From assembly GCA_001938485.1 (NCBI GenBank), contig MQRK01242767.1, positions 3,123-67,122 on the forward strand: a stretch of DNA of 64,000 nt. The letters are read 5' to 3'. Below the pieces are notes generated by a model. It ran no database searches. It saw only the letters and a list, made by a program, of their open reading frames with translations, and was not told where the DNA came from. This DNA comes from Girardia tigrina. Its lineage: Eukaryota. The position numbers and the translations under genes were made by a program. This document shows, in pieces, positions 19,765 through 63,455 of the stretch (position 1 is the stretch's first letter; the number at the start of each line of letters is the position of its first letter).

Positions 19765-20003
19765 AACACGCCATTTGTTAAATTTATTTTTTATGACAAT
19801 TAATTTCGACGGTATAACCGTCATCGTCAGGTCTCAAGAAAGAAATGAATTTTAAATCTACTTATATAGGCAAGCAGTGATTATGTCATCAATGGATTAT
19901 TATGTCATCTAAAAACGCTTAATAGGGTTTTCGAGAGACCCGTTTGCACATTAATCTTAGGATCTAAAGATCTGATATAAAGCGCTTCACAGGCCACCAA
20001 GTT
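19765..20003 (-). mobile_element. Penelope-like 3' fragment (GIY-YIG C-terminus + pLTR)
   Basis: CEALYIRSLDPKINVQTGLSKTLLSVFR*, followed by TATATAA, a hammerhead and AATAAA. Confidence 0.85.
19795..19833 (-). ncRNA. Minimal type I hammerhead ribozyme
   Basis: GAC-CUGACGA-U-GACGG(UUAUA)CCGUC-GAAA-UUAA-UU-GUC. Confidence 0.85.
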
Positions 20004-20045
20004 ATTAAACAAAAATAACACCATTTTAATTTTAAATTTTTATTG

Positions 20046-20083
20046 GAAAACATGTTTCGCCACTTTTGTGGCATCTTCAGTTC
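20046..20083 (-). ncRNA. Minimal type I hammerhead ribozyme
   Basis: GAA-CUGAAGA-U-GCCAC(AAAA)GUGGC-GAAA-CAUG-UU-UUC. Confidence 0.88.
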
Positions 20084-20146
20084 TGTATTTAATTACAAAG
20101 TTATTGTTTATATAGAAAGATGACCATTACGTCACAGTGTGTTACG

Positions 20147-20515
20147 TCAAAATACTCTAATATGATTTGACGAATCACTTTGCACATTTAGACTAGGTTT
20201 ACAAAACTTTATAAAGAGTGCTTCAGTAATTGTCCTTTCATAATTGTAATCAAAGTTACTAATAAAAACCCGAAAATCATTATCAAATACCCTCCATTGA
20301 GTTCCATGACATTTCACTATGTGGTTCAAAATTGAGATTTTTCTACTTGATTGGGTATGTTCTGCAATTCTAGTACGGAGGTGACGATTTGTCTCTCCAA
20401 TGTACAAGGATTCACACTTGTGACATTTATATTGGTAAACTAAATTTGCTTTCATACCCAATTGTGTTTTAGATTTATTTGAGAAGCAATTAGAAATTTT
20501 ATTAGTTAGAAACAA
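20147..20515 (-). pseudogene. GIY-YIG endonuclease domain, inverted copy
   Basis: LVYQYKCHKCESLYIGETNRHLRTRIAEH..EALFIK..PSLNVQ. Confidence 0.9.
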
Positions 20516-20869
20516 TACTTTAATTGTAACACCTACTGGGGCCTGTTTTTCTAAATTCGTTTAAAATCCCTAGCACCTTCGGAATATGGAATTTTTAAAT
20601 AAATTTTTTTGAATTAATCACTTCCTCAGTTGCATTCAAATTTTTATTAATTTTGTCTTTTGATTTTAAATAAATTGACTCCACAGTATTTTTAATGATA
20701 TTATTTAAATATTTCTTATTATAACCATTAATACTAAGTCTATTATGAAGAGTATCAATTTCTTTATCAAAAATTTCAAAAGAAGAAGTTAAACTCCAAA
20801 ATTGTTATTGATAACAAGAGGAAAAATGGTTTACCAATTCCCATTAAAGATGAAAAAAATATTAATTTA

Positions 20870-21916
20870 ATGATATACAATTTTATAAAAAGTAATGATT
20901 TAAATTCTACTCTTAAAAACAGTTTACTAGCTCAAGGGTCACAACCTTCTAAGTTATACGGTCTTCCAAAAGTACACAAAACAGACATCCCGATGAGGCC
21001 TGTGTTGTCAATGATTGGAAGTGCACAATATAATGTTGATAAGACTCTTGTTAAATTATTAAAACCATTAATAAATAATCCTTTAGAATGTAAGGAAAGT
21101 TTTGAATTCGTAGAAAAGATTATAAATTTAGAAGTTAATTCGGAAAGTGAAACTATGGTCTCATTTGATGTGGTAAATCTTTTCACTAATATCCCATTAG
21201 AGGAGACGATTCAGTTATGTGATGATCTTTGGGATGAATTGGTTGAAGATAAATCAAAATCAATGAGTACTAAAGCCCTGAAAGCCTTGCTTGAATTCAG
21301 CACTAAGAATGTTCCCTTCTCGTTTAATGATGATTGGTATATGCAAATTGATGGAGTTGCAATGGGTTCTCCATTGGTTTCGTCAATGGCTTCAATTTTC
21401 TTACAAAATTTGGAGCAAAAATTTAAAAATTTTACAGGGGAATTACCAATCTTCTATACCAGGTATGTAGATGATACTTTTCTGATATTTAAAAAGAAGG
21501 AAGATGTGAATAGTTTTTTAAACTTTATNNNNNNNNNNNNNNNNNNNNNNNNNNNNNNNNNNNNNNNNNNNNNNNNNNNNNNNNNNNNNNNNNNNNNNNN
21601 NNNNNNNNNNNNNNNNNNNNNNNNNNNNNNNNNNNNNNNNNNNNNNNNNNNNNNNNNNNNNNNNNNNNNNNNNNNNNNNNNNNNNNGTTTCTGTGACCCA
21701 AAATATAATAGAAATATGATTAAGGGTCTAGTGCATAGAGTTTGGAGTTTAACTTCTTCTTTTGAAATTTTTGATAAAGAAATTGATACTCTTCATAATA
21801 GACTTATTATTAATGGTTATAATAAGAAATATTTAAATAACATCATTAAAAATACTGTGGAGTCAATTTATTTAAAATCAAAAGACAAAATTAATAAAAA
21901 ATTTGAATGCAACTGA
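20870..21916 (+). pseudogene. Penelope-like reverse transcriptase (spans an N gap)
   Basis: LYGLPKVHK..RPVLS, SFDVVNLFTNIP, QIDGVAMGSP, YTRYVDD. Confidence 0.95.
21529..21686. other. Assembly gap
   Basis: N run. Confidence 1.
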
Positions 21917-22026
21917 GGAATTGATTAATTCAAAAAAATTTATTTAAAAATTCCATATTCCGAAGGTGCTAGGGATTTTAAACGAATTTAGAAAAACAGG
22001 CCCCAGTAGGTGTTACAATTAAAGTA

Positions 22027-22395
22027 TTGTTTCTAACTAATAAAATTTCTAATTGCTTCTCAAATAAATCTAAAACACAATTGGGTATGAAAGCAAATTT
22101 AGTTTACCAATATAAATGTCACAAGTGTGAATCCTTGTACATTGGAGAGACAAATCGTCACCTCCGTACTAGAATTGCAGAACATACCCAATCAAGTAGA
22201 AAAATCTCAATTTTGAACCACATAGTGAAATGTCATGGAACTCAATGGAGGGTATTTGATAATGATTTTCGGGTTTTGATTAGTAACTTTGATCACAATT
22301 ATGAAAAGACAATTACTGAAGCACTCTTTATAAAGTTTTGTAAACCTAGTCTAAATGTGCAAAGTGATTCGTCCAATCATATTAGAGTATTTTGA
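22027..22395 (+). pseudogene. Penelope GIY-YIG endonuclease domain
   Basis: VY..C..C..YIGET.R.L..R..EH. Separated from the RT by a frameshift/stop. Confidence 0.92.
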
Positions 22396-22458
22396 CGTAA
22401 CACACTGTGACATAATGACCATCTTTCTATATAAACAATAACTTTCTAATTAAATACA

Positions 22459-22496
22459 GAACTGAAGATGCCACAAAAGTGGCGAAACATGTTTTC
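22459..22496 (+). ncRNA. Minimal type I hammerhead ribozyme
   Basis: GAA-CUGAAGA-U-GCCAC(AAAA)GUGGC-GAAA-CAUG-UU-UUC; TATATAA at 22428; AATAAA at 22498. Confidence 0.88.
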
Positions 22497-23076
22497 CAAT
22501 AAAAATTTAAAATTAAAATGGTGTTATTTTTGTTTAATGACGAAATTACCATTTGATTTAAAGAAATTAAATTTAATTATAAGTTAAGTTTTACAAATTA
22601 AATTGCAAAAAAAATTTAATAGATGATTTTTTGCGAAATGATTGAATTAACAAGAAATTTGTTTATATATTTGTAATATTGTCATTAATAAAGTTTTGTG
22701 ATAAATATGACTTCTGAAATTTCGGATAATGAAAATGGCATATACGATTCTTCCAATTATAAATCCTTCAAAGATCACAATTGTTAAGTTCATACATAGT
22801 AAACCCAAAATTAGTTGTCCCTAATTTTGTAAGCTTAGCAAAGTAATGAGTAAATGATAACATGATGATTTTGCTGAAACTTTATGAAAATTTTATTAAG
22901 ATGAGTTTGATTTATCTTATCATTATAGTAATCTTACTACTCTATAATAAATAAAGAATACAGTTATGTTTTTGGTTTCTTTAAAATCCATTTTCAAAGT
23001 CAAATCAAAGCTATATTTTAAACCGCGTACAAAAACTATTTATTATTTAAACAAACAATATTTAGTAATTAATCAA

Positions 23077-24270
23077 TCACACATAACTCTCCCCCTCTTC
23101 AAGAACCCGGCCAGCGTTTGAGCCATTCAATGTGCTTCTTTTCACCCCATTTGAAAATTGAATTTCAATCTGATGTGGTGAAATGATCATGAGGATCTTG
23201 TACGGTCCTTCGTATTGGAAATCGTTCTTCTTTCTCTTTGCAGGATCCACCCGGACGAGTACCATCTCTCCCTCTCTGAAATATCTCTTCCCTCGACTTT
23301 CTTTTTGGTACATCATCATTTTCTCAGCTGCAGCATCTGCATTGTCTCGAACCTCTTCATTGATCTGATCCTTGTCGTAACGTTTCGTTCCAGACACCGA
23401 ATGGATGTTTATTTTCCGGCCGTAAACGATTTCGAAAGGTGAGAATTTAGTCGAATCTTGCACAGTTGCATTGATACTGAATTCAATCCGAGGCAACAAT
23501 TCATCCCAATTTTTCTTTGTACATTTACCTTTCAATGACGTTGCGATCATATTTCTTACTGTTCTTATCACTCGTTCCGCTAAACCATTCGACTGATGTT
23601 GATATGGTGAGCTAAATTCTTGTTTGATCTGTAATTGTTCCAAGCTCTGGCTCATAAATGCACTCTGAAATTGTCTACCCCGGTCTGTTAGAATACTAAA
23701 TGGCTTGCCGAATTTATAGATCCAATTGTGCAAAATACATTTAAACATAGTGCGCTCATCTTGCTTCGAAACCGCGTTCAAACTGACTAACTTACTAAAT
23801 CGGTCTATAATGACTACCAAATATTTTTTTGTTGAAACTTTGTCCATGTGGGCAACATCTATCACTATCTGATCTAAAAAGTTTTGGCTCTTCCGAGGGC
23901 ATAGAATGTCTTTCGTTCTGGATTGATCAATTTTTCGCTTTGCACAAACGTAACACTGATTGATACATTCCTTTATGCACTCATATATGGCGTGCCAATG
24001 AAAATTGTCCTGTAAATACTTGAATATTTTCTTAATTCCCAGATGACAAAGATCGATGTGAACACCTCTAACGAATTCTTGTGCATAATTCTCTGGAATG
24101 ATCGTTAGTAGACCATTATTTTGTTCAACCATGACGAGACGGTCTATTAATTTGTACAGATAGCTTCCTTTGAAAACGTCAGAAAATTTTCTATTTCTAT
24201 CTGCAGATACTTCCATTGCTTCCATGATGACTGCATCACTGCGTTGTTTGTTTTCTAAAATCCCCATCAT
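23077..24270 (-). CDS. Gypsy integrase (HHCC zinc finger, DDE core, GPY/F), open for 397 aa
   Basis: H..CHLG..CYVC, IVIDVAHM, ILTDRGRQF, SNGLAERVIR, YEGPYKI. Confidence 0.9.
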   Translation of the reverse strand: MMGILENKQRSDAVIMEAMEVSADRNRKFSDVFKGSYLYKLIDRLVMVEQNNGLLTIIPENYAQEFVRGVHIDLCHLGIKKIFKYLQDNFHWHAIYECIKECINQCYVCAKRKIDQSRTKDILCPRKSQNFLDQIVIDVAHMDKVSTKKYLVVIIDRFSKLVSLNAVSKQDERTMFKCILHNWIYKFGKPFSILTDRGRQFQSAFMSQSLEQLQIKQEFSSPYQHQSNGLAERVIRTVRNMIATSLKGKCTKKNWDELLPRIEFSINATVQDSTKFSPFEIVYGRKINIHSVSGTKRYDKDQINEEVRDNADAAAEKMMMYQKESRGKRYFREGEMVLVRVDPAKRKKNDFQYEGPYKILMIISPHQIEIQFSNGVKRSTLNGSNAGRVLEEGESYV

Positions 24271-24317
24271 GTTATTTATTCCATAAAGAGAATTCAGGTA
24301 TTTGATTTTTGAATTTT

Positions 24318-24587
24318 TTATTTGACTTCGATATGACTAGTTTCACATTGTGAGCAAAGTTTCTGCTTAATACGAGACAAGCCATATGCATTATTGTGTT
24401 CTTCACCTTTCCTGTATTGAAGAGTGAAGTCATATTCAGACAGATTTGCCAGCCATGTTTGAAATTGTGGGCTTATCGGTGTCTTCGTGGTGTTCATGAA
24501 GACCAAAGGCTTGTGGTCTGTGCGGGTAATGAACCGTTTCCCGTATAAATATTGATTAAAATGTAAGACGTATTCATGAAGAGCCAA
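24318..24587 (-). pseudogene. Gypsy RNase H C-terminal part
   Basis: HFNQYLYGKRFITRTDHKPL..WLANLSEYDFTLQYRKG..NAYGLSR. Confidence 0.9.
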
Positions 24588-24886
24588 ACTCTGACAAACA
24601 ATCCAACAGTAAATGAGTATCGGGCATCGGAAACGAAATCTTGTCTTTCACAGCATTTAACATACGACAGTCGACGCACATTCTTATGGAGCCATCTTTC
24701 TTACCCACGATTACCAGCGGTGAGTTCCATGGACTTTTGTATGGCCGAATAATGTTCGACTACCATAAATTATGTATCATTTCATCAATCTTACTCTCCA
24801 AATGCATCGGTTGTCGGCGGTGATGTTGGCTTATTGATACATTTCTTGTCACAATGTGATGTTGGATCTTCCGAGTATGTCCCAAA

Positions 24887-25384
24887 TCAAACTTTGAAGC
24901 CATGATATATATTTCCAAATTCACAGATAAGCTGTTGAAGAGCTTTCTGTTTGTGATTCTTGTACTGTTCCAGTGCTAAACTTGTCCGCTCCTCATCAGT
25001 ATGAGTATTCTTCAATAAATCTGCGTCAATATTATTAACTTCTAATAGTTGTACTCCAAACATCTGCATAGTGTCAATACCGCCAATGAATGGTGGATAT
25101 ATCTTTTTCACAACGACCACCTTGATTTTCCTCAACTTTTTGTTCCAACGAATATCTAATAAAACAACACCCATGGGCATTTCTGTACCGGTCGAAAACA
25201 CACCGCTTAATCGAACTTCTGATTCTGAAAGTCTCGGTTCTCCAATCTTCCACCAATAATCTTCATTTATCACCGTAACCGATGCTCCTGAATCCCACAA
25301 CATCTCTAAACAAACACCTTCCACCTCTACCATACTCCCCATTCTCCCATCAGTTGACTTCCGCATCTCGTCCCGCTTTTCCAC
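24887..25384 (-). pseudogene. Gypsy aspartic protease
   Basis: MLWDSGASVTVI..FIGGID. Confidence 0.85.
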
Positions 25385-25479
25385 ATTCCGATTTTGCTAT
25401 CATCATTTATTCCAATCCCATTGACGAAATGTAAGCAACGGGATCGCTCCGGTTTTTTCCGGTTCAACATCATGTAAAA

Positions 25480-26535
25480 TTAATTCATCCCCGTGTCGTA
25501 AATTTCATCATAAACACATAAAATCGTCCGTGGCCTCTGATAACTGCTGTTCTGCAAAAGACTACATTCCTTAAAACAATGACCAGATTTACCGCATATT
25601 AAATATTTATCCTTCAATTGGCATTGAAAACGTCTGTGATCATTTTCCCTGCAACAAAAGTACTGACCCGGTTTCAGTCGCTCCTCATGCAGTGGGGGTA
25701 GTCCCCGTATTCTATTATAGAATCTTCGAGCTATATGTTTCAGAGAAACCGAAGGCGGCTGTCTCACCGGCGTTTGTCGGAATTCAGAAATGACCGATTG
25801 TATATGACTAATCCGGTTGGAAAAGTCCCAATCTATGAATCTCTCATCCGTTGATCTTCTGAGACCAAAATTAGACTGCTGAAATTGCTTTGTTGGTTGG
25901 TATTTCACAGCTTGAGCATAATTTTGGGATTCTTCTGCTTGATATTTGTCTTATTATTAAAAGCGCTTACTTCCATTTTCTCATCTTCCGAGATCTCTCG
26001 GTTCTCGTAGACTTTCGCCAGTGTCCTCATATCTTCTCTCTTCATTTCCGGTTTCAGAGCCAGTGAATCCCTCAGACCGGTACTGAGTCTAAAACACTGT
26101 TAATTAGTTTCTTTACCCGAATTTCAAACGTGGCAAATCTCTCTTTTGGCTCTTGCTTAACATTCGCCAGTTCCATGAAAATATCTAAGATTGACTTCTT
26201 CATCATAAATGTGTCACGAAACCATTCTCGAGCTTCCACCTGAGTCATTTCATCCATTTTTGGATCCTTCCATAATTCCCCAGCTTCTTCAGACAATAAT
26301 AAATCAAATGCACTCACCAAAGGCAAGTCATTTAATGATATTCCTCGATATCCTTTAGCCATTTTTCCGCTTCTTGCGAATCTCTACCGTCAAACTTACG
26401 GACATTGAAATTGAGAATTTCTTGAGTCTTCTTCGGCAGCGACGCAAGCAAAATATTTCTTTGTTGGCTTCTCGTAATTGCGTTGATATTTTCGGCGTGG
26501 TCACCAGTTACGTTTTTGGTTTCTTTAAAATCCAT
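25480..26535 (-). pseudogene. Gypsy gag, frameshifted, starting inside the 5' LTR
   Basis: MDFKETKNVTGDHAEN.., RKFDG..AEKWLKDIE, KQEPKERF..FE, and degenerate zinc knuckles. Confidence 0.8.
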
Positions 26536-27499
26536 TTTCAAAGTCAAATCAAAACTATATTTCAAACCGCGTACAAAAACTATATATTATTTAAACAAAC
26601 AATATTTAATAATTAATCAATCACACATAACTAATACAGTAATAAATATTCTTTACCAGAACTTATATCAGGTGAACAATATTTATCACTACATATTTTT
26701 TAATAAAAAATGTTAAATATATTTTATACAAATCTAATTACAATAATTAAACAAAATTATTTAAAAGATTAGCAAACTATTAACAGAGAAGAGGAAATCA
26801 ACAAGATTAATCCAATATTGGATAAAGATATCTGATGAGGAAGAATAAGAATAAGTATAACTTACAAGATTGACAAAATCGTTACTCTTAAACAATTATA
26901 TCTTATAATCTAGGAGAGTATTTTTAATATTTTTCGATTATCATATAGAGTGAATTTAGAAACACTCTGTTGGGAAAATTTTTTTTTCGCATTTTTTCCC
27001 AAATTTGAGCTAAATGCTCTTCAATTGTATAATTTGGCATATTTCCCTGTAATTCATATTCTTTGGGCATTGACAACTTATTAATTTCTTCGTTAAAAAG
27101 ATTTTCTTGGATCCATTCGACTCATTCAACTCCAGCATTATCTTCAATTATTGCAAGTACTTCATAATCATTTTTGTGATGTAACAAATTTTTAGACTCC
27201 TGTCCCCCTTTTTCACAAAGTGTCACACTTTCACAGACCCCCAACTACCCCCCTATGCGTTATGTATTTTACGAACGAGCCCTAATATATTAATATATAA
27301 ACTACAAAAAAGTTAATTCAGTAATTCTTCATCAATAATTCTTCCTTTCACTTTTTCCAGTCGATTTTAACTAAAGAAACTTTTTTTTCACCAAAAAAGC
27401 AGATCATACCATCAAACTGCTACCCCCAAACTGTTGGCTTTATACATTTTCCGAGGCAGGAAATTTACCGTTTAGTCTAAATATTTTTATTTCCAAAAA

Positions 27500-30491: not shown

Positions 30492-32554
30492 AATGTTTTC
30501 CCTCAAATTGTGACGTACCTAATAATTATTAGGTATAATATTTTAAAATTATCTAAATAATTTTATAAAATAATTAGTATACACTCCATCTTGTCCTCAA
30601 AGTACACATACAAAATGTCTGAGCTCAGGGAAATTAAGAGTTACATCGAATCTGAATGCCTGCATACATTTTACATTCTTCGGGACCGTTGTTTGTTTGA
30701 TTGCATCTTCTCAGGTTTAGGTTCGTAATTCTCATTCTCATCTTTCTCGACACGTTCAAGGTTTCGAATTCTCTCTGAATCTGTTGTTTCATTCCCGCTG
30801 TTCTCTAATTGTAATTCTACTGTCATCATCAGATTTCCCTGGCACACTTGGTTGATTTGATAATGTGTTCTGTTGATCTTCATTTAATGAGATAAAGACA
30901 TATAGATCACAGTCCAGTACCTAGTCATTCAGATTTATTGTGGCGTGGGCTTTACAATACATCATCTTCGATTCTTAGCTTTGGATTTACTACTGTTTAC
31001 AGAAAATATTTTTGGCCGCAGAAATCTTATCTTTTGAATAAAAATATTTAATATTGGGATCCTGACGTCTGAGTTTTGCGTCACATTGAACTAGGTAACC
31101 ATTTCACCCACTTTTATGTCGATCCGAGCGACCATCATTTTAATCTTATGGGGAATACGTACCACATTACCGTTTCCGCTGGGACGCTTATTGCATCGCA
31201 GGACGTTCTTTACGCATGCAATCTGTACTGCAATTGTACAGAATCAAATCCCCCGACGGTCTGAGTTCGTTTAATGTCTCTCAAGGCAGAGCATATATTG
31301 TGTTAATAACAAATTACTAGTTGCAAAAGAATTTTATTTGAATCAGATATTTACACTATTTACTTATTAAAACAAATTTATGTTAATTCACAATTATTAA
31401 AATAATTATTCCACAATTACTAAATATTCCACGTATATCAAACTCGTATTTTGAAGCTATTAAATACCCGGCCCATAGAACTTTGTCTGATAGGAATTTT
31501 GCTGTTCCCTATGCGTAAAGTCAGTCGCCAACAACTGCCACGTACTCAACCCACTGAGCTCTACTTTATTCCAAATGTCCGTTTGTTTTATAGACAAATT
31601 TGCGCTTGATTATTATTAAAACGTAGAGAAATTGAATTAATTTAAATTTATTAATAAATTTTTTAACATTAAGATTAAAAAGATGCTGAAACAGAGATAA
31701 ATATATTTGAGCTTTGAAGAAGTCAGGGGGAGAGGACAACGCTCTTCCGAAATAAATTAACTAAGATATTTTGCTAACATAAAAATAAAATAAATGATAA
31801 AATAAATATTTTGCTGAACCGTGTCCCCGGATATCGAGATTATGTGAGAGATAAGGGATAATGAGAAATAAATGAAACGTTCTCATTTCAAAAGACAAAA
31901 TGAGATTACGTTTGAAACAGAAAATAGAAAAGCAAATAAATGTTTTAAAATCAAAATAAAATTGTTAGTTTTATTTCGTTGATTTCCTTATGTAGCTGCA
32001 AATAATGAGACCCCTTATCAGCAATTTAGAAGGGAAAAATCTCGTTGTTGTCTTTTGTATTCACTGAATTACTCTCTCTACAAAATAGATGAATTCTGAG
32101 GAAGGTCTTTTGTTATTTGTAGATGCTTATCGGATGAGTCGATCAGGCTCGTGGGCCATCAGGACGCTGAGTCGACTCTTACCTTAGATCATGCCTCAAA
32201 TACCCAGACATTATTATGTTCCTACATGACCGACCTAGTGTCACTATTATCAAATGAGAACAATGAAATAATTTTGTTTTATTTATTTTTTGATTTGTAA
32301 TATTATGTAATTTATGAAAAATTAAGTAGTTGAACATGTTTCAATTTTTTCATACATCATCAGCAAATATAATTTGCACAATATTTCAATGTTAATTTAA
32401 GTCCCAATTATTTTATAAAATAAATAAAAATTTTGTAATTAATATGAGGGGTTAATTTTAATTTTTTATCTCGCCTGAATAGTTTATTATTTTTTAATTT
32501 AAAGGGTAAAATATTTTTATATTAATTTGCTTGTTAAATATTTTTAAAAATTAA

Positions 32555-32604: not shown

Positions 32605-33154
32605 AAAAATATCTTAGAATTAAAAATGTCAAGAAAACAAAAATATTAAATATTTATTTTTAAGCAATTTTAAATATTGATTTTGAAAATAGTTTAAATA
32701 ATTTTTGAAATAAATTTTCGAAATAAATTTTCGAAATAAATTTTAAGGATTTTGAAAATTAAATCGAAAAGAATTTAATAGATTAATTTGGGTCGAGATA
32801 ATTAAATTAAATTAACAGGAAAATTTGTTTTAGAAATGTGAATTGTTATAGAAATAAAATTTTGGTGTTTGAAAAAATGAATTCGGATATAGACGTTGCA
32901 ACCACTTCTCACAATTAATATTAATACAATCTTGAAAAAATAATATATAAATATATATTTATGCCGAATTCACGAATTCAGTAACTTTTATAAATTTTTT
33001 TAATTCAATTTTGAAATTGATACTAACATTTACTATGAAAAAATATGTATTTAATATGAAAATTTATGAAAAATTATCAATTTAATTTGCAATTCAGCTT
33101 TTCCTCAAGGAAGAAAATTTACATTTGGAGTCAAATAAATTGGAGAAGAATAAT

Positions 33155-35244
33155 ATCCATTATTCTTCTTAGTCTGTCCTCATCTGATGGGTTGTCTCTA
33201 ATCACCAATATTTCTCCACCTCGTGGTATCTGTCTTTTAAATTTTATTCCGAATTTATCCAAGAAATCTATACCTGCGATCATTTCGGGTTCTAGTTCTT
33301 TGACCATATAAAAATCTATTAACTTTTGTGTTCCCTCAATGGCCACATTTAATTGAACGATTCCATAATTGATCAGTTCTGAATCATTTGCGCAATGGAT
33401 ACGTTTTTTCGTTTCTCTTATTTTAATTTCTTTCGTGTTTTTAATTATCTCCGCTTTAATTACATTTACTCTTGCTCCAGTGTCAAAAAGGCAATGAACT
33501 TTTCTATCTTTCACGTAAAAATCCACACTTGGACGTCCTTTCAGTTCTTTATAAAATATCTTAAACTTTGATATCTTCAATATTTCCGTTTTACCATTTA
33601 GTTTCTTATCATCTTGATTTGTCATACTATTATACTGTTCTCGATTTACAATATCTTCGCATTCAAGTTCGCACATCTCTTGAGGAATATTTTCATACGT
33701 AAAATCAAACACATAATCACACACACATTCAAACACACAATCAAACATACATTTACATTGGTTTTCTAATGAAGCACACTGATCACCTCTCCTTGTGATC
33801 GTGCGTCTTCGTTTCCCTGTTCGTCTCCGGATTTTCTTTTACCTCTAGAATAATCTCTTGCTGTATTCTCTTCTCTTCTATCAGAAATTTCCGATCTCCT
33901 GTCCATTTCATCATCCATGTCGTCTAACTCCGCCAAGTGTTGTTTCTTATTCATATATACCGGTCGTTCTCTATATCTCTGATTAGAATAATCTCTCCTG
34001 TCATTCCAACGATTTTTATTATTGTTAGGTTAGGTCACGTTCTTTAAACCTATTTGGGTTTTCAAAACATTGTGTTCGTAGGTGTCCTCTTCTTTGACAG
34101 TGGCTACACTTAACGTATGGACATTCTCTACTAACATGACCTTCCACGTGGCATGCCCAACAAATTATTTTTCTGATTTTATAATTTCGACTTGTACCGT
34201 CTCTCTTTACTTTGTCTTTCCGTAGTTTTGGTGTTCTTCTTTTATTCTCCACAGTTTTCCAATCGTTTTATTTCCTTGTGTTATATGCTGCAATCGGTGA
34301 ATTTCTTTTCTTTTTCCCGTATTCATACATCCTCATTTGTATGTTTTCGATCTCCTCTGCCTTTGTTACATCTCGAATTGCTATCTCTTGGTCGACGTTA
34401 TCATCGTCAATCAAATTAGCATAGACCAAGTTTGATAGTTCTTTCTTACCAAACTTTTTCTCTACTAATTTTTCGATTATCTCATCTGCTTTGCGGAACG
34501 CAAGTGACGGGTCACCGCAACCTACTCTTAACTCTATGATATCTTTCATGAAATCCAAAATAGATTTCTCTTTTGAAAATGCTACTCGCATTTTCTCTTC
34601 GCAAGTACTCCCTGGGGCCTTCTCGTATCTCAGAATTGCATCTGTAGTCAATTATGGTTTTACCAGAAGGATTTTTCTCTCCTCTGATAATCTCATAATC
34701 TATGAATACCTGTTAAAACTTAACATGAATTCTTCTAATTTGTTCTCGGATCCATCGAATTTTTCTGGACCTTTGATGTTCGGAGTCACGTGGTGTGAAG
34801 TCGCCATGTTTGACAGAACATTTATTACATTCACATTTCTTATCATCTTTATGATGATCAACAGTAATGCTTTCACTTAAGTCCATCATTCAATTTTCAA
34901 TATCTCTCATTATAATCTGAACTATACTTGAGAAGATTATTTTATTTAAAAATATTTAATTTAAATTTTATTGACTAAAATAAAATATTTTATATTAAAC
35001 ATTAATTTGATTTAAATTATTTAAAAATTTACTAAAATAAAATCAATAAAATTATTTAAAAGTTGCAATAATAAAAATTAAAAATTTGAATATTAAATCT
35101 AAATTTAAATAAATTAGTTTCAGATTATAAGAATTAAAATATTTATCATCCATCTGGTTAGGAGAGGCACAATCCCAAATCAACACACAACATTTAAACA
35201 TGCAAACACTACAAAAAACAATTACACACCGCATATTCCTCACA
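33155..35244 (-). mobile_element. Family A 5' portion: LTR (34807-35244), PBS TGGCGAC, gag, frameshift site, protease; truncated
   Basis: LTR closely similar to 56963-57392; MATSHHVTP..KFDG; CWACHVEGHVSREC..CSHCQRRGHLRTQC; LFDTGA. Confidence 0.95.
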
Positions 35245-35699: not shown

Positions 35700-36620
35700 T
35701 GAAACTGAAACCTCAAAATAAACAGACATAAAGAATTCTGTATCTTTTAAGGCATTATTAGATATTTTGGCTTTTGAGGAGCATAAACTATCTGTCTAAT
35801 CTGAAATATACTGATGAGCAACAAAAATATTCTCTGTAGATTAAAGGTTTGGTAAATAGAGCTTGGTCTCTGTCTTCAACATATGTAAAAGCTGAAGCTA
35901 GTATTGATTGGTTTACTGAGCTTTGCATAAAAATGGCAATTCAAAATTGTTTCTGAAGAAATTAACCAATCAATTAATAGACAAATTAATTAATCAAGAA
36001 TTCGAAGGAAAAAATGATTTAAAACCTGATAAAGTATCTCATGGAAATTTGAATATTGGTGTACACTCTAATTGTTCCTTATTCAGAAGGTTTTAAAAAA
36101 TTTAAATCACCTATTTTAAAATCAATTTAAAAATCATCTCCAAAACTTCAAATTATTTTCAGTAATAAATCTCTAACTCCATTGAGTTTGTGCTCCAATC
36201 TCGTTTATCAGTTTTCTTGTTATGGGTGCAATGTCACATACATCTGAAAGACACCTTGTCTGTAAACGAATTCAGGAGCATGGACGATTAAGTAATGGCA
36301 GTATTGCTGGGCATATGGAAGTTTGTAGGTCGGATGTGAAAATTACTGAATTTAAATATTGTGTAGTTATTTTTAAAATTATTGGGAAAGAGTTTCTTGT
36401 GAAACATTATTGGTTAAATTACATAATCAATGTCCAATATAATTAATGTCCAAACAAGTGCTTCTTCCACTTTGTTAAGATTGTTTTATTAGCTATTACG
36501 TCATTTGATTACATAATCGTCATTTTAATATATAAGACAGCACAATTGTCGTTAATTAAGCCTGATGATTGTGGAAAATCCACCGAAATATATTGCAAGA
36601 ATAAAATTTAGTTTTTTTCA
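35700..36620 (+). mobile_element. Decayed Penelope-like 3' region with pLTR
   Basis: KGLVNRAWSLSS, NLVYQFSCYGCNVTYI, RIQEH, followed by TATATAA, a hammerhead and AATAAA. Confidence 0.85.
36559..36597 (+). ncRNA. Hammerhead ribozyme, partly decayed
   Basis: AGC-CUGAUGA-U-UGUGGA(AAA)UCCACC-GAAA-UAUA-UU-GCA; mismatches at the base of stem II and in stem I. Confidence 0.7.
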
Positions 36621-44699: not shown

Positions 44700-44940
44700 A
44701 AAATTCACAACACGTTAAAATTCTATCCACTAAATTAATGAATTATTGGGAAAGAGACTCGTGTGAAGCGTTAAATGTAAGATCTTTGGATCCTAAAATT
44801 AACGCTTAAGCTGTACTCTGATGACATGTTGATTACATAATCATTAACTACACTATATAAGGTGATTTTGCTTGAAGAATCATTTGTTCTGACGATGACG
44901 GTTAAACCGTCGAAATTAATAAACTTTAGGTGGCTTCAGA
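44700..44940 (+). mobile_element. Penelope-like 3' fragment/pLTR
   Basis: NYWERDSCEALNVRSLDPKIN, followed by TATATAA and a hammerhead. Confidence 0.8.
44886..44924 (+). ncRNA. Minimal type I hammerhead ribozyme
   Basis: GUU-CUGACGA-U-GACGG(UUAAA)CCGUC-GAAA-UUAA-UA-AAC. Confidence 0.87.
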
Positions 44941-48996: not shown

Positions 48997-51220
48997 TAAA
49001 AAATATTAATTCAGTTTATTTATTTAAAAATTGTAAATAAAATTAATTAACTTATTTAAAATTTTACAGTTATTTTAAATTAGATATAAATTTAAACATT
49101 ACATATTTTTAGATAATAAGAATCAAAATATTAATTTTCTGTGTAGGAGAGGCACAATTCCAAATCAACATACAACATTCAAACTCAAAACATCAAACAT
49201 TCAAAATATTCCTCACATTCTCCTCGATTTAAATGGCTTTACTCATTCAACATTTCAAATAAAACTTCTTCCATCTTCAAGCTGTAACTCGTAGCTTCTT
49301 TCATGGTTTCTTTTCACCACTGTTGCGGAACCCATGTAACGGTCATCTTCTGTTGAGACATTTTCCTTCTTAATCAATACTTTCTTTCCGACTTCAAAAA
49401 TTCTTCTTGTCTCTATTTTTAGCGTCCATTTTATTGTTTTGCCTTTACTAATATCATTGATTTTCGGTTTTTTTTTCATTATTGTTCTTTTGCCATTTAA
49501 AGCCATCTGATTCTTCGCCTAATGCCAGAATTCTTGTTTTAATCTTTCCTTTCTTGGACTCTTCATGCATTGTTTGACACAGATTGCACAATTTGCACGA
49601 ATTTCTTGACATTGCATCAGCATTTGAATGTTTTTTACCTTTTCGTTATTCCATTTTCATGTCAAGACTACTCAGAAAATTTATCCATGTTTGAGACTGT
49701 GGTGTGATAGGGTTCTTTGTAGTCATCATAAACGTAATAACTTTATGATCTGTTCGCAACAAAAATCTTTTTCCATACAATGTTTAAAATACTGTGGGAA
49801 ATAAGAAATTGCAAATAGTTCATTTCCTGTAATACAATATCCAAGTTCATGTTTATTCATTTTGTATGATCCATACGCAATCACCCTTTCTCTTCCACAT
49901 CCGGCTTTCTGTGATAACACCGCCCCTATCGTATCAAAACTTGCATCTGTATCAAGTATAAAGTCTTTGGCGAAATCAGATATGCCAAAATCGGGGTTTT
50001 AATTATTCTTTCCTTTAGTTTTTGAAAAACTCCATCACATTCTTTAGTCCAAATCAGTTTCTTATCCTTATTTTTACCATATAAACCTTCCAATACTTTT
50101 GCATATCTTGCGTAATCCTTTATAAATTTTCTGTAGTAATTTGTCAAGTAATGGCTCTGTAAATGGGAAATGCATGATGGGCTTTGAAACTTGCTTATCG
50201 CGTCAATCTTTGATTTATCTGTTTCAATACCATCTCTACTTATGATATATCCCAACAATTAAGTCTTTTCTACATAAAATTGACATTTCTCCGGATTTAT
50301 TCTTGGATTATTCTCTAATCTGATTGTTTAATCTTCTCAAATACGTTATTTACTCTTTGAATATGTTCCTTCTTATCTTTTTCTAAAAATCAATATATCA
50401 TCCAAATATACGACTGCTTCTTTCCAATTCAAATCTCTCAAAACTTTCGCCATTAGCTCCTGAAAAGTTGCTGGGGCCGCAGCAATTCCAAAAGGCATTC
50501 TCTTGAAACAGTATTGGCCGTACTTTGTTGAGAATACCGTCTTAATCTTTGACTCATCTTCTAATTCTACTTGATGGTAAGCGTTTCCCAAATCGATTGT
50601 ACTAAAGTATTTTGCCCCATTTAGTGTATTCAACATATCGTCTACATTTGGCATTGGAAACGCTGGTTGGACGGTTATTTTATTTAACTGACGAAAATCT
50701 ACACACACTCGAATATCTTGCTTTTCATTCTTTCAAACACATACCAAGGGAATGTTCCAAGGAGAACTACAATTTTTGATAATATAATTTTCTTCAAAGT
50801 GTTTTATAATATCATCTAGTTTCTCTTCAAAATGTTTCGGTTTTCTCTACGGTTTTACCAGTACTGGTTCTCCATGCGTTTCTATCTTGTGTTTGGTTAA
50901 CGAAGTTTTTCCAATATCCCATTTATCTGCCATTAATATTGATCTGTACTTTGTTAAAAGTTCCATTAGCTCATTTTCACTTGTAGTATTGTACAATTCT
51001 CTTATTCTTTTCAATCTATCTTCATCAGAAGGGCTATCTATAATAGCCAATATGCTATCGATATTTGATGCTTCTTTCTTCAGTTTTATTCCAAATTTAT
51101 CCAGAAAATCTATACCAGCAATCATTTCCGGATCTATTTCTTTGACAACATAAAACTCTATTGTTTTCTCTACCCTTTCTATTATCACATTTAATTGTAC
51201 AGTCCCATAGTTTACAAGTT
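48997..51220 (-). mobile_element. Family A pol relic (PR end, RT, RH; integrase core deleted), PPT and first half of the 3' LTR (48997-49217)
   Basis: CVDFRQLN, FKRMPFGI, YLDD, ERVIAYGS, EVGKKVLIK..RSYEL; PPT GAGGAGAA followed by TGTGAGG. Confidence 0.93.
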
Positions 51221-51387
51221 AAAATGTGAGTTTTGTAATTCTAATACTTCAGAAAATCAAGGATCTTGCGAGTTAACGACATAAATAGAAAGAAAACTTA
51301 TTTAAATGATATTATTAAGGAGCAAAATAGTTATTTGACAAGAATACTTCAATGAGTCGGATATATCTCTAGCGCGGTTATATAATA

Positions 51388-52611: not shown

Positions 52612-52649
52612 GAAAACATATTTCGCAACTTTTGTGATCTCTTCAGTTC
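52612..52649 (-). ncRNA. Decayed hammerhead in a pLTR remnant, same family as 22459
   Basis: GAA-CUGAAGA-GAUCAC(AAAA)GUUGC-GAAA-UAUG-UU-UUC; flanks match 22430-22510. Confidence 0.65.
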
Positions 52650-57392: not shown

Positions 57393-57422
57393 ATGATAAC
57401 ACTAATCTTTAAAATAAATATA

Positions 57423-58452
57423 CAGAGCGTTCCAAAAGTCTGTTCGCACCCATAAAAATCATCACTTATACAAATTTCCTAATTAAAAAGACGATGAAGT
57501 GGAAGTAAATATTAAATTTACAAATAAAAATGTTATTTTTAATATTTTGTGTGGTATCCTTTCATCTTGATGATTGAAGACACCCTTCGCGGCATCGAAT
57601 CGACAAGTCGACGACATAAAGAACTTGGTATGTTGTACCATAACTTTTGTACTTCTATCCACATTTTCTCTGAATTCAAAGTATCCATATTATTTATTTT
57701 TCTCTTTATAATACCCCACAAATTCTCAATTGGGTTTACATCTGGTGAGTTGGCAGGCCAATCAAGAATATTTATCTTCTTTGTTTTCAAAAACGACACT
57801 GTTGATGCTGATCGATGGCAAGACGCATCAACATTCGACCACTTATCGATGTTCCAATTTTTTTTATCCCGAGCCCATTCAACTCTTCTTTTTCGTTGCA
57901 TTCCATTCAATAAATGCATTATGCAAACAGCATAATGACTTTTTAAGCCGTACTTTATCAAAATTCTATTCACTGTACTTCGTGGTGCATGTATCATTCC
58001 AGCTGCATTGAAAGCTCCTGTTATTTTACTTATCGACATGCACCTATTTTTCAAGCATATACGGCGAATAATTCTTTCAGAACGTTTTGGTAATTTTGAA
58101 GGTCGTCCACTACGTTTTTTATCTTCATATGTACCTAATGTCATGAACTTATGTACAATTTTTTGAATGCCCCCTTTGAAACAATAATACCATGTCTGAC
58201 CTTCATAATTTCTTGTATCCGACCCGTTGAATGACCCTCGTTCATTCATTCTACAATAATAATCCTAAACCTTATATCTATATTTCGAGTTGTCATTGAA
58301 TCTAAAAGATAGACATTTAATTAATTCATCTTAAAAAAAAGATGGTTTTGATATTTCAATTTTAAATTTACTAAAATTATTTAAATTAAAGCATTTAAAC
58401 AAATTAAAAAATTTAATAAATAGCACAAATCAAAATTTCAATGGGTGCGAAT
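57423..58452 (-). mobile_element. Tc1-like transposon, internally deleted (ORF 57539-58249)
   Basis: TA+CAGAGCGTTCCAAAAG TIR, with only a partial TIR at the other end. RSGRPSKL, WPANSPDVNPIENLW, LVDSMPRR..KGYHTKY. The first catalytic-D region is missing. Confidence 0.92.
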
Positions 58453-58739
58453 ATATTTTCTGCTTTCCATTCATCTATTGACAAAATCCTGACATCTTTT
58501 TCTGTACTATTTTCTTCAATTGTTCCCACTAAACTTCGTCCAAGCTTGTCCTCAAAACTTTCTTTCTTTAGAAATTTCCGTACTTTATCATTTACTCTTG
58601 CTTCGCTTATCTCAACATTCCTTTCATCGCCTATTACTACGTCTATAATATTTGATATATTACTTCTACTATAAATACCAATACTTTGGGAGTCACTGTT
58701 ATCTTTTAATTTATTTTAAAATGTTATTATATCAATTTA

Positions 58740-60585
58740 GTTGTCACTTTTTAAAAATGTTTAGATTTTATTTTAACCAATCATAAACTTGTTAATTAAT
58801 TAATATTAATAATTATTTTTCATTTTTTTCAAAAATTAGGATGAAGCTCAGAAATATATTAATCAAGAAAAATGTCGAATAATGAAAGTAGTTTGAATAA
58901 GTGTTGTCATGACAATTCTGCTTGTGATATTAATAAACGTTCAAAAAATCATATTGATGTTGTTAATATGGCGACCACAGCTCATGTGACAACGAAAATT
59001 ATGGTATATGAAAATATTCAATGTATCTGAGTCGAAATTAGATGATTTCATAAAAAACTTTGAACTTTATGCCGATATTATTGATATAACAGAAGATAGA
59101 AGATTAGTGATGGTGACGATTTTCATGACTCCATCAGCAATTACAAAATTTTCAGAAGCAGATGGAAACACGTACAAAGAAAAACTGAAAACTGCATTTG
59201 TGAAAGAAAAATCTCTGCTTGATACAATGTAGGATATTTTAAATCTCCGATGGTGATCTTCAGATCCGGAAGAAATGTTCAAAAAAGCGTAAGAATTGGT
59301 AACGATATTAACAGAAAGTAAACTTTCTAAGAAAATGCTGCTCAACCTTGTTTGCATGAATAAGCTTGACGATTATGAGGTCAAAAAAGAATTGAAATTG
59401 AGAGGAGCTACTGAAACGAAGGACATAAAAGATGTAGTTTCAAATATGTATGAACTATAACAAATGGAAAAAGAAGAAACAGTTGTGGTATACAATACGG
59501 TAGGTAAACATGATGAATGGAAAACGATAGGCAAACGTAAACCGCAATATAAAGAACGAACCAAACAAAACAATTTCGAAAATAATCAAAGAAATAATGA
59601 ATACAAACCGAGAAATAACTATTTAAAAGTTGTAAAATGCTGCACATGCCTCGAAGAAAGACACATCAGAAGAAAATGTCGAAATATAAAATGTTTTTAT
59701 TGCAACAGAAATGGCCATATCAGGACACAATGTAATATCAACAAGGATATATTTAAAGAAAGAGACCAAGACGTCAGAAAAAATGAATGGAAAAGAACAA
59801 ATAACCCACGAAATAAACAGAGGCATCAAAATCGAAGATATCATATTACAGAAATACATGATTGTAACGATTACAACGACTACGAAGAAACAAGATCAAA
59901 TGAAGGAAACTCGAGGCTAAGAATGCTTACTGATCAAAGACAAGTATACGACAAAGACCAGGGAAACGAAGATGTACGATCACAAGGATAGGTGATCAGT
60001 GTGCTTCATTAAAAAGTGAAAATGTTTGTGTATGTAATGGTATGTATGACTGTGTGTTGATTGTGTGTTGGAAGATACCCCTCTAGAAGCTTGAGAATTA
60101 GATTGTTGGAAAGAAGAATTTGACACCAATTGTTTTGATTTGGAGATAAAGATAAAATCGAAAAAGTTTAAAAAGGAAGAAATGTTGGAAATATCAAAGC
60201 TCAATATTAGATATGACAAATTGAATGAAAGACCAAGCATTGAATTTAATACAAAGAATATGAATGTTGAATGTCTTTTGGATACCGGTGCCAAAGTAAA
60301 TGTTGCTAAAGCAGATATACTTAGAAGTTTGAAAGATGTTCGGATAAAACGCATTCATTGCCAAATGATTCGGAACTTATAAATTATGGCATTGTTAAAA
60401 TAAATGTAATAATTGAAGGAGTACAAAAATTATAGAATTTTATGTAGTCAAGGAACTAAATCCAGAGATGATAGCACGAGTTGACTTTTTAGACAAATTT
60501 GGATTAAAACTAAAGAAGGAAACTATAGATTCAGTTGAGATATGGATGATTAGAGATGGTTCTATGGATGATGACAGACTAAAGG
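58740..60585 (+). mobile_element. Family A-related 5' relic: partial LTR, PBS TGGCGACC, gag, frameshift site, protease
   Basis: MSNNESS..VVN-MATTAHVT; CCTCLEERHIRRKC..CFYCNRNGHIRTQC; LLDTGA. Confidence 0.9.
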
Positions 60586-62904
60586 GTCTACTATTGAAAA
60601 AACTTTGAAAAAATTAAATACAATAAAAAATTTCGAAAATAATAAATTTACATCTGTTTTTTATTCATAATTATTTTGATTTTATTCGTTTGTGCAAGAA
60701 AATTTAAAAATCGTTCCTCAGAAATTTACTTAGGCAAAACTTGTTTAAATAATGTGTTTATTGCTGTTTAAATAAAAGTATCAAAAATGTCTTTGTCTGA
60801 ATTCTCATCAGAACATATTCCAAAGCCTAACAAAATGCATGCCCCAATTTTCATCACATGTGCTGCCATTTCCATGTTGAGGTTTTAACCTTGTCAAACA
60901 ACCCCCACGAATTATGAAGGATTATACATAATAAATTAATGTAAGCAAATATAAAATAATTTTTCCTTCGTTGTGAAAGTTTCCTTTTAATATTCGTAGC
61001 AGAAACTAATTAATAAATTTTGACATTATGACATGTTAATTAATGTGATTAATTTTATGGCATCAAGGCTTTACAAAATTATAATTATGATTAAATAATA
61101 GAAGAAATATTAATAAATATTTGATGATAAGATAAATAATATAGTTTTAATAGAAACGAAATGCATTCATTTTAAACGATTGTTCTATTAAATCAACATA
61201 TTTCGACGGATCAGTCGTCATCGTCGCAATACATTATGTACTCTGGAACTCGTCAAATCCGGACAAATTATCGGGGTCCCCAGAGACCCGGATTCCGCGA
61301 TCCAGACTGTACATTATTTGACTAATTTTATTAAAGACCTTATAGAAAAGATGCCTGATGTCTGAGTTACAATGTCTAGAAACAATTTTAAGAACCCAAA
61401 CTAAAAGAAAATACAATTAAATACATAGCAACATAAACAAAAGAAGTCCATTGAGCATCTCGTTAATTGTACATCAAGTGTTACCCTATATTCCTCGTCA
61501 GATGAAGGAACTTCCACTGGTCACAGAAGCATCTGGAAATAATTATTTTGAAGGATATTCGACCAATTTGTCAGAATACAATTTATAAACTTTGTTATTA
61601 ATACATTATTGTTTTCCGATTATGAGATATTATATCGTTAGACCGTGAAAAAATATATTATGTATTCTGATATAATTGAGATTGTATCGATATAAGACTA
61701 ATAAAGAAGGAAGAGCAGAATGATTAATGGGCCATAGCGAGAATACGCTAACGATTCCTATCCTCATGGTGTCCTGAGTCGACTGACGATAAATGTATTC
61801 CACTCGTCGGCCTACTCTAAACTGTTTCGGATCACTGTTCAAATGACAAATGTTTGCACATGAATTATTGAGAATTGTAATATTTACTAAAGGAAAAGGC
61901 CAGAAACAGAGGGCAGAATGTTTATGGTATTATCTCTATATTAATATGGTCTTGCTTCGGTGGACAATACAAATTGTAGTGATGGTCGCGTACACCTGGG
62001 TTGCCCGAGTGGATGGGCAGATATCAATTCGTCGATTCAGCCTTGGTCATCATGATCACCCCTTAGCGTCAATCATTCTATCACCTCAACAAGAACAACA
62101 TCAGTGAGAGAATTATAATTCAAAAACATAGATTTAAAATCAGAGAATGTTCCATCATTGTTAAGATCAGTCGGACGCAAGTTGATTTTCGGGCAGATAG
62201 AACTCTTCCGTCGGTAGTTCTATTTTGAAGTGGGTGATGCCATTCAGTTTCATGGTTAACAGGTCGATCGAAGATTCATCTTTAAGTTTGGTTTTTACAG
62301 AAGATGTCTCGGAAGACTGGGTAGGGCTGTATAAACCTAGGACGCTTCGACCGATATACTGGTCTTCGATTAATAAATGGTTTGTATGAGAAGTTAGTTG
62401 AGTCGCTAATTTTTTTACGAGTCACGAGTCGGGTCTCTAAAACATTTTACGAGTAAAGGTTCGAGTCAAGAAAATCTTCATATTTTACATTTCACAAGTA
62501 AGGACACTAAATATAGAAATGATCGATTGTTACTAAAAAGCAGTAAAGAGGAAATAGCAGTTACTAATAGCAGTAATTCAGAAATCCGCCCCACGTTTTT
62601 GGTTAGGTATAAAATTTCTCACATGTCTAGAAAAAAATTATTTTCCTCTTTTTAGTGCATTGGTAATGCTTGAAAAACGTGGTTGTTTTTATAAAAATTT
62701 TTTTGATTAATAATATTATTTTTTAATTAATTTATGAATATTTATTAATTATTTTGTTTCCTATTAGAAAGACCTGTTTTTACCACGTAAATATTAATGA
62801 TTTTGTTTACTGGTAATCTAAAAAAATCTTAACAAATAAATTATAAACATTTTAAAACTTTTTTTAATTTAAACAAATAAACGCCATTTAAAAATATATT
62901 TTAG

Positions 62905-62943
62905 GATAATATATTTCGACGGTTTGACCGTCATCATCAGATA
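62905..62943 (-). ncRNA. Minimal type I hammerhead ribozyme
   Basis: UAU-CUGAUGA-U-GACGG(UCAAA)CCGUC-GAAA-UAUA-UU-AUC; one stem I mismatch. Confidence 0.8.
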
Positions 62944-63416
62944 ACTGATTATGTTCTTTTTATTGGTTTTATATAAGAAATGAATGATTATACAATCACT
63001 TACGTAAGTCTAATCGAAAACTCTTAACAAATTAGTTGAGAGTGCTGTTTGAACATTTTATTTTTGGATCACATGATCTTATCAACAATGCTTCACATGA
63101 CACTCTCTCCCAATAATTTTTAAAATGCTTGCACAAAATCTTAAAATCATTTATGCTCATATTGCATTTACACGTTTTTTTATGCTCAGAAAAAAAACGT
63201 GTAAATGTAATATGAGCATAAATGATTTTAAGATTTTAAAAATTATTGGGAGAGAGTGTCATGTGAAGCATTGTTGATAAGATCATGTGATCCAAAAATA
63301 AAATGTTCAAACAGCACTCTCAACTAATTTGTTAAGAGTTTTCGATTAGACTTACGTAAGTGATTACATAATCATTCATTTCTTATATAAAAGCAATAAA
63401 AAAGAACATAATCAGT

Positions 63417-63455
63417 GATCTGATGATGACGGTTAAACAGTCGAAATATATTATC
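63417..63455 (+). ncRNA. Minimal type I hammerhead ribozyme
   Basis: GAU-CUGAUGA-U-GACGG(UUAAA)CAGUC-GAAA-UAUA-UU-AUC; one stem II mismatch. Confidence 0.8.

Follow-up and report, generated by a model that had tools for sequence, protein, structure and literature searches.

The minimal hammerhead ribozymes carried by Penelope-type retroelements in a 64,000-nucleotide stretch of the Girardia tigrina contig MQRK01242767.1 (assembly GCA_001938485.1, positions 3,123 to 67,122; hereafter the window) very probably contain the start codon of these elements. The motifs are almost certainly minimal type I hammerheads in the 3' pseudo-long terminal repeats (pLTRs) of 5'-truncated Penelope/Poseidon-type retroelements, and the AUG formed by core nucleotide A9, an extra U, and G10.1 very probably starts the open reading frame (ORF) for reverse transcriptase (RT) and endonuclease. 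Taken as a whole, we regard it as probable that ribozyme and start codon overlap in this lineage, in which case self-cleavage of a dimer would take both cap and AUG off the mRNA of the element. Overlap with the start codon in several diverged families is the new point, a modest one that extends a single published case, the Poseidon element PAc of Anolis carolinensis (Frangieh et al. 2024, PMC11167929). Published work on the hammerheads of Penelope-like elements (PLEs) has found low activity, no requirement for them in vitro, and no matching RNA ends; if our reading is true, the overlap would account for the fixation of U at the extra position, and cleavage would be expected to act directly on translation.

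The window has a GC content of ~30%, three assembly gaps, and numerous transposon remnants. It contains 12 minimal type I hammerhead copies, which represent ten insertions from about six families of 5'-truncated elements (family A at 20046 and 22459, B1 at 19795, B2 at 44886, C at 62905 and 63417, D at 36559, E at 32330, and relics). Nine copies had been listed in a preliminary description made from the letters alone, and all nine sites carry a hammerhead-like motif; three decayed copies (573-611, 1591-1625, and 32330-32366) emerged from self-comparison and a covariance model. The nine listed copies correspond to seven insertions, because 20046/22459 and 62905/63417 are the arms of inverted duplications (98% identity over 801 bp and 91% over 654 bp, respectively, by self-comparison). 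The core CUGANGA ... GAAA ... UH, in type I topology, is intact in nine of the 12 copies, stem III is an exact palindrome in nine, and G10.1 pairs with C11.1 in nine (exceptions 36559, 52612, and 32330). All 12 have one additional base after position 9 and before 10.1, and in 11 it is U. The statement that every copy follows the full pattern was too broad, as pairing is complete in just four of the nine (19795, 20046, 22459, and 44886) and the copies at 36559, 62905, 63417, 52612, and 61192 have mismatches or core changes.

Several results support the placement of the start codon within the ribozyme. First, the triplet made up of A9, the extra U, and G10.1 reads AUG in ten of the 12 window copies and in L001, a related element, and both exceptions are decayed. 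By hand count of the published alignment of metazoan PLE hammerheads (Cervera and de la Pena 2014, PMC4209133), 12 of 56 rows have U at this place and ten have an AUG; U is thus fixed here beyond the norm of the class. Second, peptides read in the AUG frame (MTVIPSKLI..KWR in B1, MTVKPSKYII..KWR in C, MPQKWRNMF..KWC in A, and IVENPPKYI in the frame of D, where the AUG has been lost) match in register the beginnings of the nearest full-length relatives, P0296 (841 aa; MAGNPPKLI..KWR) and P0290 (821 aa; MMSMNSTKYIFRKW). Of 72 full-length proteins, P0296 or P0290 came first or second for the peptides that A, B1, B2, C, and D encode in the AUG frame, with scores of 35-43 compared to library means of 17-20. 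Independently of this, the endonuclease remnants of C and D also match these two proteins best, and that of B1 weakly matches P0290. Third, the N-termini of P0296 and P0290 can be back-translated so as to give a stem II with 5-6 Watson-Crick pairs and a closing G-C, together with GAAA, a palindrome, and UH, and a strict version of this back-translation test was passed by 3 of 71 N-termini compared to 2 of 844 internal methionine controls. Finally, a tryptophan codon (now a stop codon in D) is kept in frame at four different spacings across five families. In PAc, the ORF begins at stem II and the cut lies 26 nt downstream (PMC11167929); PAc was tested biochemically, whereas in the window the overlap is read from sequence in five diverged co-resident families. 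The available portion of PMC11167929 does not tie the extra nucleotide to an AUG and proposes no translation switch, and a literature search for Penelope hammerheads with start codons or AUG returned nothing beyond that paper and PMC8557442.

We initially favored a different start, the ATG of a conserved AAATGG sequence 44-53 nt downstream of A9, and dropped it after comparison with the N-termini of P0296 and P0290. Under that alternative the hammerhead would be 5' untranslated sequence and its AUG would open merely an upstream frame. The downstream ATG has good context, it begins hydrophobic peptides (MVLFLF, MAFICL) that resemble the N-termini of many distant relatives, and P0168 has its first methionine downstream of a hammerhead that is read in another frame. 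In P0296 and P0290, however, the frame that begins at the AUG of the hammerhead stays open as far as RT, and because they have Lys-Trp at the matching place, AAATGG reads as Lys-Trp codons. Moreover, the frame from the AAATGG ATG stops within 6-7 codons in B1 and C, although the tails may end there. We consider this start very unlikely and retain the AUG within the hammerhead.

The promoter region of the pLTRs also fits a transcript that begins close to the ribozyme. Nine of the 12 window copies and L001 have a TATA box 32-38 nt ahead of C3, and its TATATA columns are invariant in all eight aligned pLTRs. Usual spacing from TATA to start would place the beginning of the transcript 3-10 nt before C3, and initiator (Inr)-like sequences occur there in B2 (TCATT, 9 nt before C3; TATA at 44854, plus strand) and in the family C copy at 63417 (TCAGT, 8 nt before C3). 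Two paired sites, which we take to be bZIP-like, stand 53-77 nt before C3 in the pLTRs of families A-D and of L001; they are of the TGACGTAA, TTACATAA, and TTACGTAA types, usually lie upstream of TATA, and keep their position across families of about 60% identity. In family A the predicted promoter spans 22393-22434 on the plus strand (bZIP-like sites at 22393 and 22408, TATA at 22428), and in D the TATA box is at 36529 on the plus strand. A sigma-70 scan, which has no bearing on a eukaryote, found nothing. The published PLE descriptions, in the portions consulted, make no mention of paired bZIP-like sites. The pLTRs of rotifer elements (Adineta vaga Pen2a and relatives; Arkhipova et al. 2013, PMC3846280) likewise combine TATA, an Inr-like sequence, and the first 12 ORF codons, and those elements share with ours a tail and inverted pLTRs with palindromic junctions; hammerheads and paired bZIP-like sites, by contrast, are not mentioned in the available part of that report. 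D. virilis Penelope differs in having C at the extra base and, according to PMC2377424, an intron and a TATA-less internal promoter.

In the mechanism that we propose, the upstream pLTR of a pLTR-ORF-pLTR partial tandem would start a capped RNA close to where stem I has its 5' strand, and ribosomes would initiate at the AUG inside the ribozyme. The transcript would carry two identical hammerheads, which could exchange strands by pairing at both stems I and at the palindromic stem III. A cut after H17, which falls at ORF nucleotide 26-27 and thus around codon 9, would then sever the cap and start codon and trim the 3' end, yielding an uncapped unit-length RNA unable to make the full protein. 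Published work on other families suggests that such cleavage would be slow and protein-assisted. Differences among family stems would represent drift under a pairing constraint, with self-recognition arising through proximity in cis, and a review (PMC6765202) repeats the cis-dimer model. The window copies themselves are truncated relics. That cleavage serves in vivo as an off-switch for translation is a tentative suggestion, to which we give somewhat less than an even chance.

A number of observations weigh against overlap or cleavage as we read them. The strict start-overlap test was failed by 68 of 71 full-length relatives, and a looser earlier test gave 3 of 67 compared to 4 of 791 (p=0.013). 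Within the clade of P0296 and P0290, well supported in a quick tree, the hammerhead is read in a different frame by P0168 and P0008, a start coded by the hammerhead is not seen in P0281, P0162, and P0009, P0163 does not pass the palindrome test, and P0165 is a borderline case. In L001 the AUG is out of frame and a stop comes early, neither E nor the 61192 remnant yields a matching peptide, the search for a full-length N-terminus of family A itself found none, and the assignment of the start draws on predicted proteins of relatives. With respect to cleavage, no copy folds freely into the active dimer as its lowest-energy state; transcript start, cleavage, and RNA ends are here inferred from the DNA; hammerhead mutants of PAc insert normally in vitro and no RNA-seq reads end at the PAc cut site (PMC11167929); and Naiad elements are described as thriving without hammerheads. 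Given the other-frame relatives, the relatives lacking such a start, and L001, the overlap is best viewed as a trait of a lineage and not as a rule, and we rejected the general proposition that PLE ORFs start in a hammerhead (3 of 71). As a separate observation, the predicted N-termini of P0168, P0008, and P0165 seem to run across a hammerhead whose palindrome is UAUA, and to do so in two different frames, which suggests that the ORF start may shift relative to the ribozyme within one clade.

These PAc results would also suit a role in which the hammerhead fold is kept for some other reason, as a protein-binding or end-processing signal in retrotransposition or as a passenger, and rarely cleaves in vivo. 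Hammerhead activity in vitro is low (PMC4209133), and Craig et al. raise the possibility that hammerheads simply parasitize these elements. The catalytic core, however, is retained across families whose upstream flanks are merely 48-64% identical, and it stays while the encoded residues 2-6 differ between families, a pattern that fits selection on catalysis. Furthermore, PAc RNA does cleave when the protein, which it requires, is present, with rescue at C3/G8 (PMC11167929). Retention of the fold for another reason therefore seems unlikely to us, and we continue to favor a hammerhead that can cleave. We judge equally unlikely an elaboration of this cleavage model into a dual-coded translation switch, in which the transcript would start at stem I, A9-U-G10.1 would be the start codon, pairing through a family-unique combination of stems I and III would act as the key that removes cap and AUG, and a ligated circle would restore the ORF. 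Ligation of the unit-length product would join codons 1-9 from the 3' pLTR to codon 10, and the whole ORF would exist only in the circle; the consequence would be family-specific negative feedback on protein output. Work on viral hammerheads and translation (PMC13725137, 2026) is relevant as context only.

The hammerheads themselves stand out clearly from chance. A strict descriptor (core, 5-bp stem II, and 3-bp stem I) matched four times in the window and not once in any of 200 dinucleotide-preserving shuffles made in 2-kb blocks; a relaxed descriptor gave seven matches against a shuffle mean of 0.015 and a loose one eight against 0.055. The preliminary description had suggested a covariance model as a check, and one built from five window copies (43-column alignment, rough E calibration) retrieved the family A copies outside its training set (E=5e-5 by that calibration) as well as decayed copies in the window. 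A match at 30805-30837 (E=0.18) lacks GAAA and was treated as chance, and 13 further window matches all had E>0.5. The claim of compensatory changes in the stems held up, in tests that use few sequences and controls that ignore relatedness. In the five-copy alignment, 93% of 60 cells are paired compared to 23-64% in slid controls, two-sided changes occur at six of 12 pairs, and the covariation score was reached in none of 500 shuffles. When each family is represented by one copy (six from the window, with L001 as the seventh), 52 of 56 positions are paired compared to a permutation mean of 30.5, a value reached in none of 20000 permutations. Despite the small numbers, a pairing constraint on the hammerhead stems is clear. 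An Rfam search of the window gave no hammerhead family among nine matches at E<=5. A pattern scan of metagenomes found at least one related locus among the 591 matches listed, and scans of prokaryote and viral collections for related hammerhead DNA found none.

Dimer formation appears suited to these shapes, as the preliminary description had proposed, in that stem III is palindromic and the minimum-free-energy monomer fold of window copies is predicted to lack stem III. The same description went further and proposed that family-specific stem III palindromes could by themselves serve as a code restricting dimers to a single family. Unlike palindromes do mispair (three of six pairs for CAUG with UUAA, four of six for UUAA with UAUA), and L001 has a fourth palindrome, CGCG. 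Each window palindrome, however, occurs in two families with different stems I (CAUG in A and E, UUAA in B1 and B2, and UAUA in C and D), so B1/B2 and C/D would form perfect stem III heteropairs. Only 16 tetramer palindromes are possible, UAUA recurs in six Drosophila rows of the published alignment (by eye; PMC4209133), and contigs of three sequencing runs join the B core to the stem I of the other family (as loose ends at 19830). A code carried by stem III alone is thus highly improbable. The part unique to each family is stem I, for which the observed pairing was reached by one of 5040 permutations. In the type I dimer geometry both stem I helices are also intermolecular, and discrimination is therefore predicted, with stems I and III together as its source. 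In a rough 3-bp helix model that sums interstrand helices, homodimers of family representatives had energies of -9.5 to -18.8 kcal/mol (-6.1 for the damaged 62905 copy), whereas all cross-family pairs were at -6.0 kcal/mol or weaker; heterodimers are accordingly predicted by this model to be poor.

The uniqueness of stem I and the stronger homodimer helices would be expected if stems I and III formed a selected recognition code in trans, by which abundant RNA of one family triggers its own cleavage as feedback on copy number. Preference for homodimers, however, is automatic for any diverged self-complementary sequence and is no sign of selection, the stems I are only 2-3 bp long, and published dimer activity is low even in cis (PMC4209133). 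Where a single transcript supplies both partners as identical pLTRs, a code would not have to be selected at all. We therefore doubt a selected code in trans, rating it as rather unlikely, and prefer recognition through proximity. A literature search for hammerhead heterodimers or self-recognition in retroelements found no test. A study by Lunse et al. 2016, the title of which reportedly announces dimer cleavage, may contain mixed-dimer tests. As a side observation, hammerheads A and then B1 lie in the same orientation 250 nt apart at 20083-19795 on the minus strand, because the A insertion abuts the 3' end of B1; this mixed-family pair is predicted to be incompatible. L001 (904-938), a related Penelope pLTR, combines its CGCG palindrome with a GUA triplet and matching TATA spacing and appears decayed.

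The stem I pairs, three stem II types, palindromes, and cleavage triplets (GUU, AUU, and AUA) had been read correctly in the preliminary description. Among the intact copies, the minus-strand A hammerhead (20046-20083; H17 at 20049) has stem I GAA/UUC, a 5-bp stem II, CAUG, and GUU, and its plus-strand partner (22459-22496) has its AUG at 22468-22470, H17 at 22493, and AATAAA at 22498. B1 (19795-19833, minus; AUG at 19824-19822, H17 at 19798) has stem I GAC/GUC, a 6-bp stem II, UUAA, and AUU, and B2 (44886-44924, plus; H17 at 44921) has GUU/AAC, UUAA, and AUA. The two C copies share UAUA and AUU; the one at 63417-63455 (plus) has stem I GAU/AUC and one mismatch in stem II, and the one at 62905-62943 (minus) has a 6-bp stem II and two of three stem I pairs. 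D (36559-36597, plus) has U instead of G10.1, UAUA, a 2-bp stem I, and three compensatory stem II pairs compared with B and C. E (32330-32366, minus; covariance-model E=0.0025) retains the core with stem I UUG/CAA, CAUG, and GUU, and its stem II is decayed. The remaining copies are relics: a B2-type copy at 573-611 (plus; 87% match to 44879-44923, E=0.048) with G8 and G12 lost, a broken stem II, and UUAA; an A-like copy at 1591-1625 (plus; 73.5% match to the family A pLTR) with a changed core, short stem II, and CAUA; a family A copy at 52612-52649 (minus), in a 117-bp pLTR fragment 86% identical to 19999-20113, with G as extra base, two mismatches and a wobble in stem II, and UAUG; and a remnant at 61192-61230 (minus; E=5e-4) with a B/C-type stem II, a core broken by loss of C3/U4, and UAUG. 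An AATAAA follows the hammerhead in seven of the 12 copies and in none of family C; the hexamer is common in AT-rich DNA, and a role in polyadenylation would be a guess.

The carriers had been described as several Penelope families with minimal type I hammerheads in their pLTRs, in keeping with the class in PMC4209133, and most copies indeed follow a remnant of the C-terminal GIY-YIG endonuclease. By tblastn, such remnants are clear upstream of the A, A-like, C, and D hammerheads, weak upstream of B1 and B2 (E=0.086 and 0.41, respectively; otherwise recognized as endonuclease-like by translation), and were not found upstream of 32330 or 61192. Position in a pLTR after a PLE ORF is therefore clear for 1591, 20046, 22459, 36559, 62905, and 63417 and weak for 19795 and 44886, and the copies at 573 and 52612 are placed through pLTR homology. 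Every Penelope element in the window is 5'-truncated. The family A coding remnant (20804-22395, plus) contains RT (Pfam RVT_1, E=4e-11) and GIY-YIG (E=4e-5) in different frames, includes an assembly gap at 21529-21686, and is 96% identical to P0153/P0001 from 20804; past the hammerhead, a U-rich tail (22497-22541, plus) likely carries on the 5' end of the ORF, with the Trp codon in frame. Its inverted, 5'-truncated arm (20001-20800, minus; RT end, endonuclease by tblastn, pLTR, and tail) is 98% identical to 21741-22541. The adjoining 3' end of B1 (19753-19997, minus) comprises what is left of the endonuclease C-terminus (19997-19911), a pair of bZIP-like sites, TATA at 19868, the hammerhead, and a tail. 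Decayed remnants also lie at 1350-1523 (plus; 3' part of an A-like GIY-YIG endonuclease, tblastn E=2e-13) and, for D, at 35789-36437 (plus; RT end and endonuclease, tblastn to P0296 E=6e-21). The C insertion (62861-63499; tblastn to P0296 E=2e-14) consists of two short 5'-truncated endonuclease-pLTR ends in inverted, 91% identical arrangement, centered on a near-perfect hairpin junction at 63140-63232; Rfam miRNA matches at the junction fall below the gathering score and mark the inversion hairpin. No target-site duplication was evident by eye at either inverted structure. A further Penelope endonuclease C-terminal remnant at 14852-14971 (minus; E=1e-7 to P0003) is followed by one bZIP-like site and has not retained a hammerhead.

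RT is followed by a C-terminal GIY-YIG domain of the CCHH kind, with two cysteines between GIY and YIG (VYQYKCHKCESLYIGET plus two histidines). P0153, P0268, P0290, and P0296 have DKG and lack the linker zinc finger, and the window copy is truncated before DKG; these relatives fit Penelope/Poseidon as defined in PMC8557442, with DKG unmodified and no CX2-5CxxC linker zinc finger. The RT tree, made by a quick method, covers only the relatives found here. The families are highly repeated, as contigs assembled from four public runs of other organisms and aligned to 1051 bases numbered 17461, 3398, 778, and 39 on that 1-kb stretch; 20 of 24 listed run rows match part of 19600-21500. None of 40 variant rows listed falls inside the two hammerheads of this region, a set too incomplete to count as conservation. 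Contig depth immediately past B1 falls more steeply in three RNA-type runs, two of them only presumed to be RNA, than in the DNA run, but no such fall follows A in run X19; we give this no weight, since the runs come from other organisms and contigs do not reveal RNA ends.

Nearly every feature noted in the preliminary description is already present in PMC4209133, and the motif itself is ordinary. The window hammerheads resemble the metazoan PLE hammerheads of that study in type I topology, CUGANGA core, extra base between 9 and 10.1, G10.1-C11.1 pair, short helix I, and palindromic 15.2-16.2, and also in their several covarying families per genome, their mostly solitary copies from truncated elements, and their opposite-strand pairs (100-700 bp apart in the published cases); the published ribozymes had no activity as monomers and low activity as dimers. 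The extra U and the triplets other than GUC are present as described and are not unusual for the class, since the published consensus is CUGANGAH ... NUH and H17 is U or A in many rows, so GUU, AUU, and AUA are ordinary. What differs is that the extra base is U in 11 of the 12 window copies and likely part of a start codon. Non-LTR retrozymes (bioRxiv 10.64898/2026.07.22.740005) similarly have type I hammerheads, derived from PLE pLTRs, but form tandem arrays without coding remnants, whereas the window copies mostly follow endonuclease remnants; no tandem array in the window holds a hammerhead in head-to-tail units of the retrozyme type.

Other mobile-element remnants surround these insertions. 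An LTR-retrotransposon remnant at 22961-26632 (minus), between 128-bp direct repeats that are 96% identical, contains an integrase ORF (23077-24336; Pfam rve) and protease-like fragments. Four decayed pieces of LTR retrotransposons, 67-76% alike and with peptides recognized by eye as protease- and RT-like, lie at 3059-5052 (plus), 33131-34651 (minus), 49926-51220 (minus), and 59461-60582 (plus). A Tc1/mariner-type transposase remnant (Pfam DDE_3 and HTH_Tnp_Tc3_2) occupies 57539-58264 (minus), and 134-bp inverted repeats at 16542-16675 and 17879-18012, 99% identical and 1.2 kb apart, are likely a young DNA-transposon derivative. In the region 10031-11432, inverted arrays of a 14-15-bp unit flank two adjacent ORFs (10331-11050) that have no Pfam match and resemble the end of a MULE transposase. 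Finally, a GC-richer tandem array of a 21-bp unit is located at 71-326.

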